Assembly (NCBI GenBank): GCA_042217695.1
Contig: JBDGSE010000014.1
Location: forward strand, 1-49,296
Reading direction: 5' to 3'
Length of the DNA stretch: 49,296 nucleotides
From: Candidatus Nanohaloarchaea archaeon
Lineage (GTDB): Archaea > Nanohalarchaeota > Nanosalinia > Nanosalinales > Nanosalinaceae
Positions 10,017 to 15,935 of the stretch are shown here, piece after piece. Both the position numbers and the translations under genes were made by a program. Every line of letters starts with the position of its first letter. Positions within the stretch are counted from its first letter, which is position 1. The notes under the pieces were generated by a model. That model made no database searches. It had not been told where the DNA came from and saw nothing but the letters and a program-made list of their open reading frames with translations.

Positions 10017-10475
10017 ATGGACATCGTTGAGGAGATAGGTCGGAGAAGGTTGACCCTTGAGACAGGGGAACCGGAGAACGCCTACTCCGAGCTCAGAGAG
10101 CTACTCGAGGACAGGATGAAGTTTTCCTCCGTCCACGAGGAGAAGTACTACAACGATGTCGATGGAAGAAACCTTAGAGCGAAGATAGTCACGACGTTCG
10201 GCATGGATAAGTACACCCACGAGGAATACGAGATATACTTTCACGTGGACCGGGAAAAATCCGAGGTTGACATCCAGGTGAAGGCCAAGCTCGTGACCAA
10301 TTACCCCGAGGAGAAAGGCTACCAGCAGACGCTGTGGTACTACGCCTACCGTTCGCTGTTCGACAAGTTCCTCTACGGAGAGGTCAGGCACGGCTACGTG
10401 TCCGCAGTCGAGGAGAGACTGGACGACATGGTCGAAAACCTCAGGACAGCTCTGGAGGACGATTACAGTGGTTAA
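10017..10475 (+). CDS. Hypothetical protein, first of three tandem paralogue-like genes
   Basis: Acidic ORF with typical codon usage; overlaps the start of the next gene. Confidence 0.85.
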   Translation: MDIVEEIGRRRLTLETGEPENAYSELRELLEDRMKFSSVHEEKYYNDVDGRNLRAKIVTTFGMDKYTHEEYEIYFHVDREKSEVDIQVKAKLVTNYPEEKGYQQTLWYYAYRSLFDKFLYGEVRHGYVSAVEERLDDMVENLRTALEDDYSG

Positions 10476-11085
10476 GTTCGAGACAGACCCGTTCAACAAG
10501 GAGGACCACTTTTTCGTGGATGAGGACCCCGCGAGAATATACCGCGGGTTGAAGGACCTGCTTGTGGAGGAGTTCGACATGGACCGCATCGAGGAGGGTC
10601 ACAACGAGTTCTCCGTGCGTTCGCCCAAGGACAGGATAAGGATGCACGCCTTCAAGGAGAAAAGCCCCAACACCGTTCTCTACTTCAACCTCTCCTGGAA
10701 GGCGAAAGATCCCAAGGACATATTCAAGCAGGACCGCGGCGACGTCCTGAAGTCAGCGGTCAACACCACAGGAAAGGTAGTAACGGTCTATCCCGGTAAC
10801 AACCCTCTGGTGTTCGAGCCGACACCCATCTCCAAGTACCCGCAGGAGAGAGCAGACCACACCCATCTCCAGTCACCGGAGCCCTCTGCCTTCCAGCGCT
10901 CGAAACTCTACGAGATACTCGTCGGGATATGGTACAACAAGTTCTACAGCAAGGAGATCGAACGGTACGAGGAAGAGGTCCAGGAGACGGTCACGCGTAT
11001 AAACAACCTGATGCGGGAGAAGTTCGGAGTCGAAAAATCCATAGAGAGAACAGGGGCGTCCCACTACACCCCGCCGTGGCAGTGA
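10468..11085 (+). CDS. Hypothetical protein, second of the trio
   Basis: GTG start overlapping the upstream gene; shares the Y..L..LL.E and KF...E...Y...V.E patterns. Confidence 0.85.
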   Translation: MVKFETDPFNKEDHFFVDEDPARIYRGLKDLLVEEFDMDRIEEGHNEFSVRSPKDRIRMHAFKEKSPNTVLYFNLSWKAKDPKDIFKQDRGDVLKSAVNTTGKVVTVYPGNNPLVFEPTPISKYPQERADHTHLQSPEPSAFQRSKLYEILVGIWYNKFYSKEIERYEEEVQETVTRINNLMREKFGVEKSIERTGASHYTPPWQ

Positions 11086-11091
11086 TGCAGG

Positions 11092-11766
11092 ATGTCTGAC
11101 GTAAATTTCGTTGACAGGATAATGGCCTGGCTCCACACACCAGGAACATCGGAGCCGGAAGGACTCGACGACTACTTCTCGAAGAAGGACGACATCTGGC
11201 ATCACCACGAACTTTTCCAGGGAGAGACCGAGATAATGAACAAGGCGGAGTGGTACGACAGTCCGAACGTCATAGGGATATACAAGGACCACAAGTACGT
11301 CTTCAAGCAGAACATGGGGATCGGAGGGCCCGACGAGACCTTCTACTTCCAGAACGTGGACTCCCGCGAATTCGAGTCCGTGATGGAGGTCTCGGAGAGC
11401 CTGCCCAGCGGCCACGGCAGCCTGAGGCTTGAAACAGATATAAGCACGAAGAACCCGCCTGACCCGGACAACAACGACTTCGCGCTGATAGAGTACTGGG
11501 TCTCGGTCTACGTGGACTACAGTCTTCCCGGCGGCATAGATTTCCTGCCCAGGATCCTTGCATACCCGCTGAACCGGTTTTTCCGCGGCGCGTTCGAACG
11601 CTTCATACTGGAGGAGATAGTGCTGCGCGACACGGAGTACGCACGGGAACGGCTCTCGGAGTACTTCGATATCATCCGGAAACACCACGGAGAGGAGCCG
11701 ATCCAGACCAAGACCCGTCAGGAGGCATACACCCCTGGCCCCGAGGAACGCAGGTTCTTCCAGTAG
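11092..11766 (+). CDS. Hypothetical protein, third of the trio
   Basis: Acidic ORF; C-terminal FERFILEE...EY..E.L..Y resembles its neighbours. Confidence 0.85.
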   Translation: MSDVNFVDRIMAWLHTPGTSEPEGLDDYFSKKDDIWHHHELFQGETEIMNKAEWYDSPNVIGIYKDHKYVFKQNMGIGGPDETFYFQNVDSREFESVMEVSESLPSGHGSLRLETDISTKNPPDPDNNDFALIEYWVSVYVDYSLPGGIDFLPRILAYPLNRFFRGAFERFILEEIVLRDTEYARERLSEYFDIIRKHHGEEPIQTKTRQEAYTPGPEERRFFQ

Positions 11767-11817
11767 GATAGACAGAAAAAGTTTTCTGATTAAAGTGTAT
11801 CCAGGGATTGCATTTTT

Positions 11818-11888
11818 GGCTGTCCTCGGTCAGCAGGTACGACCTTCGAGGGACAGGAGATGACTGCCTGTGTTACAGGACAGCCAAA
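11818..11888 (+). ncRNA. Probable single-hairpin H/ACA pseudouridylation guide RNA (predicted target 23S rRNA helix 69, U1915 in E. coli numbering)
   Basis: P1 GGCTGTCCT/AGGACAGCC; pocket CGGTCA/GTTAC; P2 GCAGGTA/TGCCTGT; GA...ATGA motifs above P2; ANA box (AAA) 14 nt from the pocket apex; upstream TTAAA. Confidence 0.72.
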
Positions 11889-11904
11889 TCCTTGTTTTTC
11901 CGTG

Positions 11905-12162
11905 ATGCCAATGGGGAGTATATACGTCAAGGTGCGGCCGGGCTCGGAAGAGTTCAGGATAGAGGAGAACGATTTCCTGACCGTCTACCTCGAGGAAGAT
12001 GCAGAAAAAGGCCGGGCCAACTCGGAACTTGTTTCAAGGCTTGAAGACGTCCTGGGCGTCAAACCAGGTATAATCTCCGGCCACAGCTCCCGGAGGAAAA
12101 AACTCAGGGCAGACATGCCCGCAGACGAGATGAAGGAGAAGATGGTGAACCACGATGGCTAA
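11905..12162 (+). CDS. DUF167/UPF0235 (YggU-like) protein
   Basis: VKVRPGS, GRANSELV and IISGHSSRRK motifs; start is 11905 or 11911. Confidence 0.88.
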   Translation: MPMGSIYVKVRPGSEEFRIEENDFLTVYLEEDAEKGRANSELVSRLEDVLGVKPGIISGHSSRRKKLRADMPADEMKEKMVNHDG

Positions 12163-13288
12163 GACCGCACCCGACTCGGCAAAATACGTGATAAAGGCAG
12201 AGGCCGAGGTATCCGGCATGGTGGAGAGATCCGACGTTGTCGGAGCCGTGTTCGGTCAGACAGAAGGCCTCCTGGGAGAGGAGCTTGACCTCCGGGAACT
12301 GAGGGAGACAGGCAAGGTCGGCCGCATGGAGGTCGATATCGAACGGCAGGACGGCAAGTCCATCGCAGTACTGAAGATACCCAGCTCGATGAACGCGACG
12401 GACACGGCACTGCTCGCCGCATCCCTTGAAACCATAGAGAAGATAGGGCCTGCTCTCGCGGACGTAACGATAGACGAGATACAGGACGTTCGCAGGAGCA
12501 AGCGCGACTACATAGTGAAACGTGCAAAGCAACTTCTCGGCGAGATACAGCGGGACTCGCCATCCCGTCAACAGCTCAGCGAGGAGATAAAGCAGGAGAT
12601 CAGGAAGGAGGAAGTAGTGGAATATCGGGGATTTGATGCCGGCCCGGACCTGGAATGGTCCGACGAGGTCATCCTGGTGGAGGGAAAGGCCGACGTGCTG
12701 AACCTGCTGAAGCACGGCGTCAAGAACTCGCTGGCGATAGGCGGCACCTCTGTCCCGGACCGTATAGACGAGATTGCCGAGGACAGAGAGGTAACGGCGT
12801 TCCTGGACGGCGACCGCGGAGGAGACCTGATACTGCAGGAGCTGAAGCAGCGAGACCTGGTCGACAGAGTGGCCAGGGCACCGGACGACAGGGAAGTTGA
12901 GGAGCTATCGAAGAAGCAGGTGCACACCGCCCTCAGGGACAGCTCCCCGGTGAAATACACCGAAGACACCGAGGTAGAGGAGGACACCCCTGAAGAGGTT
13001 ATCTCCGTGGTGGAGCAGAGACTGGAAGAACTTGTGGGTACGCGCGCGGTAAATGCCCTGGACGAGGAACTTGAAATCGTGGAGAAGACGCCGCTCTCCA
13101 GCCTCGAGGAAGCACTCGCGAAAGAGCCCTACGCAGTGGTGCTGGACGGCGAGATCACTCCGGAGAGGGTGGAAAAAGCCGAGGAGGCAGGTGTCAAGTA
13201 CCTGGCAGGCAGCAAACTGGGCGAGACAGCCTCCTCATCGGAAATCCAGCTTTTCACCCGTGACAGTCTGGCGGAATCGAAAGCTTGA
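12155..13288 (+). CDS. dnaG: Archaeal DnaG (TOPRIM; exosome-associated primase homologue)
   Basis: DVVGAVFGQTEGLLG, VEGKADV and FLDGDRGG. Confidence 0.96.
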   Translation: MAKTAPDSAKYVIKAEAEVSGMVERSDVVGAVFGQTEGLLGEELDLRELRETGKVGRMEVDIERQDGKSIAVLKIPSSMNATDTALLAASLETIEKIGPALADVTIDEIQDVRRSKRDYIVKRAKQLLGEIQRDSPSRQQLSEEIKQEIRKEEVVEYRGFDAGPDLEWSDEVILVEGKADVLNLLKHGVKNSLAIGGTSVPDRIDEIAEDREVTAFLDGDRGGDLILQELKQRDLVDRVARAPDDREVEELSKKQVHTALRDSSPVKYTEDTEVEEDTPEEVISVVEQRLEELVGTRAVNALDEELEIVEKTPLSSLEEALAKEPYAVVLDGEITPERVEKAEEAGVKYLAGSKLGETASSSEIQLFTRDSLAESKA

Positions 13289-15735: not shown

Positions 15736-15935
15736 GCCTCGGTGGCTCAGCCTGGCTAGAGCGGTCCCCTCGTAACTGGTTACGCTCAGTTCCTACGAAA
15801 ACCGGAAAACGGTTTTCTAGGGCAGAAGACCTCTATGAGGTCTTCAAGACACCATGCGAACAGCATGGCCTTCAGTTAAAGATCAGGGCTTTGCGAGACA
15901 GGGACAGGTCGCGGGTTCAAATCCCGCCCGGGGCT
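15736..15935 (+). tRNA. tRNA-Thr(CGU) with a 125-nt intron at canonical position 37/38 (intron 15775-15899)
   Basis: Acceptor GCCTCGG/CCGGGGC plus U73; D arm GCTC/GAGC; anticodon stem GTCCC/GGGAC with loop CT-CGT-AA; T arm GCGGG-TTCAAAT-CCCGC; BHB central helix CTCG/CGAG with TAA and ACA bulges; followed by T6. Confidence 0.93.

Follow-up and report, generated by a model that had tools for sequence, protein, structure and literature searches.

Positions 11818-11888 on the forward strand of a 49,296-nucleotide (nt) stretch from Candidatus Nanohaloarchaea archaeon (GenBank assembly GCA_042217695.1, contig JBDGSE010000014.1; the whole stretch is hereafter called the window) hold a hairpin that, judged from its sequence, very probably encodes a box H/ACA guide small RNA (sRNA) of the archaeal type with one hairpin, the Nanohaloarchaeota member of this class, directed at a uridine of helix 69 (H69) in 23S ribosomal RNA (rRNA). 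This reading is carried by the anatomy of the hairpin, its conservation and covariation, the exact match of its pocket to the H69 of relatives, and the cbf5, nop10 and L7Ae genes, all of which were observed directly. Compared with the features expected of an H/ACA guide, the element combines two stems and a pocket, the letters and the distance of a kink-turn (K-turn), an ANA box, and bipartite complementarity (to relatives' 23S rRNA), and Cbf5, Nop10 and L7Ae are available to it; the feature that was not found is a gene for Gar1. The source assembly comprises 757 kb in 44 contigs, is 82.7% complete, and has the window as its contig 6.

Anatomy of the hairpin

The lower stem (P1), pocket, upper stem (P2), K-turn letters and AAA triplet can be read directly from window 11818-11888. 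These parts and the flanking candidate signals are as follows (stems assigned from the sequence and from the minimum free energy, MFE, fold).

11789..11795, + strand: presumed promoter, the A/T-rich TATA-like word ATTAAAG, about 23-29 nt 5' of where the lower stem starts (putative function)
11818..11826, + strand: 5' strand of the lower stem P1, GGCUGUCCU (sequence read, MFE fold)
11827..11832, + strand: 5' guide strand of the pocket, CGGUCA, which pairs with 23S UGACCG 3' of the free UA
11833..11839, + strand: 5' strand of the upper stem P2, GCAGGUA (sequence read, MFE fold)
11841..11842, + strand: GA of the K-turn, non-bulged strand, the 9th-10th nt from the base of P2
11843..11858, + strand: apical part, a short stem CCU/AGG (or CUUC/GGAG) and a loop with GGGAC (fold)
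11859..11863, + strand: bulged strand of the K-turn, GAUGA, i.e., the bulge and the GA of the tandem sheared G-A pairs
11865..11871, + strand: 3' strand of P2, UGCCUGU (sequence read, fold, covariation)
11872..11876, + strand: 3' guide strand of the pocket, GUUAC, complementary to the 23S GUAAC immediately 5' of the target U
11877..11885, + strand: 3' strand of P1, AGGACAGCC (sequence read, fold, covariation)
11886..11888, + strand: ANA box, AAA, 14 nt from the base of P2
11892..11899, + strand: T-run TTGTTTTT, a possible archaeal terminator (sequence read; termination putative)

P1 consists of nine Watson-Crick pairs (GGCUGUCCU with AGGACAGCC), while P2 has seven pairs, two of them G-U. A single C stands between the 5' strand of P2 and GA, another between AUGA and the return of P2, and the apical part spans 17 nt, its last letter being the G of GAUGA. 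The spacing from the base of P2 to AAA is exactly 14 nt (11872-11885). An original prediction, made from the letters of the window, had described a 9-bp basal stem, a CGGUCA/GUUAC pocket, a 7-bp upper stem, GA/AUGA motifs and AAA at 14 nt; each of these items was found in place.

Both stems reappear in the MFE fold, which has -31.4 kcal/mol (z -2.86); of 200 shuffled sequences, one folds equally well. That the hairpin exceeds chance follows from its conservation and covariation in relatives and from its unique complementarity to rRNA, not from the fold energy alone. As a separate observation, the GGGAC word (window 11848-11854) recurs in the apical part of 32 of 56 aligned copies, which is more conservation than a loop above the K-turn needs.

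Complementarity to helix 69

Because the 3' strand of the pocket pairs 5' of the target U and the 5' strand pairs past U-N, GUUAC and CGGUCA together specify 5'-GUAAC-UN-UGACCG-3'. In the searched collection, where order and phylum comprise the same 70 genomes, a pattern search located an assembled H69 stretch in 18. Seventeen of these are identical and read GGCGGCGGUAACUAUGACCGUC, which contains GUAAC-U-A-UGACCG exactly as the pocket predicts; the variant CAGUAACUAUGACUGUC in G009 has UGACUG, still pairing via G-U. The target proposed from the window alone (5'-GUAAC-U-N-UGACCG-3') thus occurs exactly in all but one of the relatives with this stretch. Four of five 23S genes fetched from relatives read GGCGGCGGUAACUAUGACCGUCUUAAGG, and the H69 of the source genome can be expected to read GUAACUAUGACCG, as in its relatives.

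Against relatives' H69, the pocket forms 5+6 Watson-Crick pairs and leaves UA free. Among 935 U contexts in the 16S and 23S rRNA of the relative G017, this is the sole 5+6 Watson-Crick site, the runner-up reaching 3+3, and pockets shuffled from the same 11 letters reach such a site in 42 of 200000 cases. The unpaired target U is the first U of the word UAUG, a position that we take to be 1915 in E. coli numbering. In the 23S rRNA of Haloferax volcanii, UAUG holds the pseudouridines psi1940 and psi1942 (PMC7075261).

Conservation and covariation in Nanohaloarchaeota

The first copies were collected by local blastn (E <= 0.001) on loci from the 60 nearest genomes, which revealed the element in the loci of 23 relatives besides the window's own locus. 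In a structure-blind MAFFT alignment of these 24 copies, 93.7% of the cells are paired and 11 of the 16 pairs have changed on both sides; none of 500 shuffles was as good, and sliding the 3' partner by 1-3 columns left 26-46% paired. A covariance model built from the 24 aligned copies (R1) has a full-length match in 58 of the 70 genomes (26 of the 28 that are at least 90% complete), with one copy per matching genome except for one genome with two. Nothing was found by R1 in four outgroup archaea (G057-G060) at E <= 5.

For a larger alignment, 56 of the 59 matches were fitted to the model, omitting the match of G069, the contig-end copy of G054 and the second G064 copy. Here 14 of the 16 pairs covary and 93.5% of the cells are paired, figures that lean to the structure as the alignment is fitted to it, the MAFFT alignment serving as the independent check. 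Changes on both sides affect eight of the nine pairs of P1 and six of the seven pairs of P2; GCCCGCC/GGCGGGC has wholly taken the place of the lower stem GGCUGCCC/GGGCAGCC in those families that are farthest from the window. Meanwhile, the pocket is nearly invariant, as the original prediction required: the letters of GGUCA are kept in 47, 55, 55, 56 and 56 of the 56 copies and those of GUUAC in 56, 56, 56, 55 and 54. Since the stems change while the loop stays fixed, the element should be a guide RNA and not a mere hairpin.

The K-turn letters are similarly stable (G 53/56 and A 56/56 in the 5' GA; 55, 56, 55 and 53 of 56 in AUGA). In 52 copies, 10 nt separate the distal G-A from the base of P2, in keeping with the K-turn distance rule of 9-10 nt (PMC7075261). 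An A-N-A box is present in 49 copies (AAA in 33, AUA in 9, ACA in 5, and AGA in 2), and the spacing between box and P2 is 14 nt in 51. The view that AAA is an unusual box has to be abandoned: the box is ANA in archaea (PMC2377435), and most copies in this phylum have AAA. Individual copies depart from the common design elsewhere, with 10-14 extra nt in the 5' pocket strand (L019, L084 and L085) or short, K-loop-like apices (L026 and L076).

Relationship to known H/ACA guides

In a permissive Rfam scan, the element aligns to positions 200-268 of the 276 positions of RF00064 (HgcG, Pab40), i.e., to hairpin 3. The geometry of this hairpin is the same, with insertions and deletions confined to the apical loop: a lower stem, a 6-nt 5' guide strand, an upper stem, GA...GAUGA, UGUUAC and a box. 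Motif 3 of Pab40 is assigned to position 2016 of the Pyrococcus abyssi 23S rRNA, in stem-loop 69 (Muller et al., PMC2377435), which is one of two highly conserved pseudouridines of this stem-loop (PMC2377435). A known H69 guide thus has a single-hairpin counterpart in the window element. Unlike the RNAs of the RF00064 family from Thermococcales and Archaeoglobus (Pab40, Pf7, Pho40, and Afu4), which have three hairpins, the nanohaloarchaeal element has one and an A/T-rich box of its own upstream. The boxes also differ, being mostly AAA or AUA in Nanohaloarchaeota and ACA or AGA in the Pab40 type, and the stems have no sequence in common.

A scan for the pocket and K-turn pattern covered one genome each of 185,579 species and gave 109 stretches, 80 of which were listed and scored with R1. 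Among the matches listed, the same element occurs in records labeled Candidatus Nanohaloarchaea, Nanohalarchaeota and Nanohalobium, and the same design of pocket and K-turn in Archaeoglobi, Thermococcus and other archaea. Within this listed set, nanohaloarchaeal copies score 47-82 bits, the Thermococcus copy 39.5 bits, and three Archaeoglobi and two further archaeal copies 33-35 bits; all bacterial matches remain at or below 15 bits, and most of the listed matches are chance ones of this kind. The only haloarchaeal match among those listed (L110; 8.5 bits, with a different fold) was likewise set aside as chance. In the listed Archaeoglobi copies, the pocket is identical (GGUCAG/UGUUAC), the lower stem is perfect over 10 bp, and the box is AGA, whereas the listed Thermococcus copy has GGUUAG/UGUUAC and an ACA box; neither the perfect lower stems nor the AGA and ACA boxes were demanded by the pattern. 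Presumably, the H69 of Thermococcus carries a matching A where that of Nanohaloarchaeota has G. The likeness to Pab40 hairpin 3 may reflect common descent or convergence toward the same conserved target, between which 11 guide bases cannot tell.

The 3' stem-loop (SL2) of sR-h45 from the halophile H. volcanii, likewise of the H/ACA class, has both a K-turn and an ANA box and acts on the H69 loop UAUG (PMC7075261); genetic evidence shows that it functions as a lone stem-loop (PMC7075261). By contrast, sR-h45 has two stem-loops with a 56-nt spacer, and SL2 leaves UNUN unpaired and makes two pseudouridines (PMC7075261). As far as the published description allows the comparison, the window element is not of the sR-h45 type, as it has one hairpin and its pocket pairs the second U and the G.

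The retention of an H/ACA guide in a reduced genome, which the original prediction offered as the meaning of the find, has a precedent. The sole H/ACA sRNA of Nanoarchaeum equitans is likewise kept in a strongly reduced genome of the DPANN type, with K-turns, its own box-A promoter and a T-stretch (PMC3491384). By its description, that RNA differs in having 159 nt and two hairpins separated by ACA and in coming from a hyperthermophile (PMC3491384); its targets are predictions of RNAsnoop (PMC3491384).

Protein partners and observations against the guide reading

The source genome encodes Cbf5 (324 bits; domains TruB_N, TruB_C_2, PUA, and DKCLD), on whose presence the prediction depended, as well as Nop10 and L7Ae. 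Of the 70 genomes of the phylum, 66 have Cbf5 (including all 28 of high quality) and 63 a Nop10 above its cut-off.

Several observations weigh against the guide reading. One is the lack of Gar1: PF04410 has no match in the source genome or in five closed relatives, and with both PF04410 and NF009628 all 70 genomes remain below the curated cut-offs. At E <= 0.1, PF04410 gives one match (in G020, at 15.3 bits and interrupted by an in-frame stop), while NF009628 gives four scattered ones; the best of the weak NF009628 matches, in G071, was rejected as a Gar1 candidate, being antisense to a 366-aa gene. The same searches were positive in all four control genomes of archaea and in three of the four archaeal outgroups. 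In the outgroup genome G058, gar1 lies directly 5' of a TFB gene and overlaps it (L201 1495-2693). No small Gar1-like open reading frame (ORF) occupies this position 5' of either tfb gene of the source genome, and tblastn with the G058 Gar1 gave matches only at E > 4. Either Gar1 has been lost in the phylum or it has diverged beyond the reach of the PF04410 and NF009628 models. In PMC2377435, the role given to Gar1 is to reinforce activity and turnover and not to take part in guide recognition, so the failure to detect it does not exclude an RNA of the H/ACA class.

A point in favor of the reading concerns the genus g23 (G038, G041, G049, and G053), in which neither the guide nor a Nop10 above the cut-off was found in any of the four genomes, while Cbf5 is present in all four. 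The H69 is unchanged where it is assembled (G038 and G041), and the Nop10-like matches are partial ones of 18-20 bits inside ORFs of about 400 aa. This looks like a joint loss of guide and Nop10, and the co-absence fits a functional link between the guide and its ribonucleoprotein (RNP); kin are not independent, and it counts as a single evolutionary event. Against the reading, R1 has no match in 12 of the 70 genomes, and neither G024 nor the four g23 genomes gave anything even at E <= 1.

On the side of the RNA itself, the source assembly contains neither 23S nor 16S rRNA, and the complementarity rests on relatives. The K-turn register of the window copy is imperfect, as had been noticed at the outset, with a bulge of 4 nt against the canonical 3 nt that a simple pairing rule gives for 30 of the 56 homologs. 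The match to RF00064 reaches 15.9 bits (E 0.017), whereas the gathering score is 77 and three hairpins are expected; full membership in that family does not apply, and no further hairpins lie 5' of the element, where an ORF ends and a TATA-like box follows. One copy (L080 from G011) has CUACA in place of GGUCA in the 5' strand of the pocket, and seven of the 56 copies show no A-N-A at the expected column. A guide with a single stem-loop in the typical U-N mode is reported to need no box in vivo (Majumder et al., PMC7075261), and the seven are therefore not disqualified. These box-less copies are L007, L008, L012, L013, L020, L062 and L076; by eye, an extra outer stem is visible in L007, L008 and L012. 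Finally, the sequencing runs that hold the locus are all DNA. Of three DNA rows from one salt lake metagenome study, two hold the stretch, one being possibly the source sample, and the third has almost none of its words.

Alternative explanations

The same H/ACA guide might produce two H69 pseudouridines (the equivalents of E. coli 1915 and 1917), as does the 3' stem-loop of sR-h45, although this is unlikely. The target loop UAUG is the UVUN word used by the Haloferax guide, with which a paired U or a paired N is still modifiable under some conditions (PMC7075261); however, that guide keeps all four UNUN bases unpaired (PMC7075261), whereas here all 56 copies keep the guide C and A that face the G and the second U, which argues for pairing, as is typical of one-site guides. 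For this design in P. abyssi, a single site, 2016, has been assigned (PMC2377435). Two heuristic scans of the source genome bear on the question of whether the second uridine, if modified, has a guide of its own. A structure-descriptor scan gave three candidates, this element being the top one, against six in a reversed-sequence control, while a scan driven by rRNA targets gave four candidates against one in the control; the three other candidates of the latter were rejected for lower stems that are weak, rich in G-U or mismatched. No other guide for that uridine and no second convincing H/ACA guide emerged from these scans, although both are strict, the assembly is incomplete (82.7%), and another guide may exist.

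Much less probable is a structured 5' leader or K-turn regulator of the DUF167-dnaG operon (an L7Ae-binding or attenuator hairpin) with no role as a guide. The hairpin does lie 16 nt 5' of the DUF167 start in a gene order kept in most loci of the family, and in several relatives the ATG follows the box by 3-10 nt without a T-run, which makes co-transcription plausible. Yet a leader would need neither an invariant 11-base internal loop complementary to H69 nor an A-N-A box at a fixed distance of 14 nt; moreover, the pocket is shared with terminal hairpins of multi-hairpin H/ACA RNAs in the other genomic settings of Archaeoglobi and Thermococcus, and co-transcription with the mRNA is compatible with guide function. 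Hardly to be credited at all are the readings as a hairpin arisen by chance, as a terminator for the ORF upstream or as coding sequence; neither chance nor coding accounts for the invariant loop complementary to rRNA, the constant spacing of the box or the return of this design in other archaeal orders. It is true that mechanical ORFs cross the hairpin (11808-12044 and 11860-12162 on the + strand; 11790-11930 on the - strand) and that its near-palindromic stems let the minus strand fold too, with a weak model match of 18.9 bits. Against this stand its retention in 58 of 70 genomes with compensatory changes, length differences between copies that are not multiples of three, a DUF167 Pfam match that begins 3' of the hairpin (residue 6 in the frame from 11905), and a score of 86.4 bits on the plus strand versus less than 20 bits for minus-strand matches.

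Proposed mechanism

For the one-site guide favored here, transcription, RNP assembly and modification are taken from the known mechanism of the family. An RNA of about 75-85 nt would be produced from its own TATA-like promoter and fold into the lower stem, pocket, upper stem and K-turn. Kinking of the K-turn and binding of L7Ae to it are predicted from its letters and distances. Cbf5-Nop10 would bind the lower stem, with the PUA domain of Cbf5 taking the AAA (ANA) box. The pocket would then open the H69 hairpin of the pre-23S rRNA, GUUAC pairing with GUAAC and CGGUCA with UGACCG. The U-A left free would lie at the base of the upper stem, 15 positions away from the box, and its U would there be isomerized by Cbf5. 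The proposed target is the first U of UAUG, the word that holds psi1940/1942 in H. volcanii, and corresponds to site 2016 in stem-loop 69 of P. abyssi.

Novelty and implications

The analysis adds a well-supported family of H/ACA guide RNAs to a phylum of tiny, host-dependent halophilic archaea. What is new is a phylum-wide guide family that lies outside the Rfam thresholds, while the kind of RNA, its mechanism and its target are known from Pyrococcus, Archaeoglobus and Haloferax. A full-text literature search, which missed subscription journals and matched 'H/ACA' poorly as a word, returned no report of an H/ACA guide in Nanohaloarchaeota. That genomes of 0.5-1.7 Mb retain the guide suggests that the H69 pseudouridine is of enough value to justify an RNA-guided machine dedicated to it, and the covariance model is ready for use by annotators.

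The undetectable Gar1, which is the most interesting of these points, and the joint absence of guide and Nop10 in one genus are leads on a minimal RNP. A tentative extension, for which the chances are less than even, is that this represents the most reduced H/ACA system described so far: one single-hairpin guide serving one universally conserved site, the H69 pseudouridine, with Cbf5, Nop10 and L7Ae, with Gar1 lost phylum-wide, and in g23 Cbf5 alone, presumably acting independently of guides. If true, the phylum would provide a natural experiment on the need for Gar1 and on the stepwise loss of RNA-guided modification.

Genomic setting and transcription

The proteins of the source genome are acidic. 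The hairpin sits in a gap of 138 nt between a 224-aa ORF (11092-11766, with no Pfam domain) and the DUF167 gene, whose start codon at 11905 lies 16 nt 3' of the element and whose Pfam match runs from residue 6 of that frame. DUF167 is followed by a Toprim-domain protein of the archaeal DnaG type. The same-strand order of 224-aa ORF, guide, DUF167 and dnaG-like Toprim gene (window 11092-13288) is kept in most loci of the family (L005-L027), which bears out the conservation upstream of DUF167-dnaG that the original prediction proposed to test; homologs of the 224-aa ORF occupy the same place in relatives with 44-62% identity (tblastn).

By eye, TTTAAA- or TATAAA-like words occur about 20-35 nt 5' of the element in many relatives, and a T-run follows the box in many. 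The guide RNA is probably transcribed from a TATA-like promoter of its own. In several relatives, the ATG of DUF167 comes only 3-10 nt after the box, with no T-run. This short distance suggests co-transcription of the guide with DUF167-dnaG, and read-through into these genes is likely in such relatives.

Among minor observations, the 224-aa ORF is the last of three consecutive ORFs (152, 205, and 224 aa; window 10017-11766, + strand) that have no Pfam match at E <= 0.01. At Rfam gathering thresholds, the window gives no H/ACA family and a single tRNA. ARAGORN reports no tRNA at the position of the latter (window 15736-15935, + strand), where 71 model positions are spread across 200 nt with a score of 41.8 bits; a tRNA gene interrupted by a long intron is a possible explanation.

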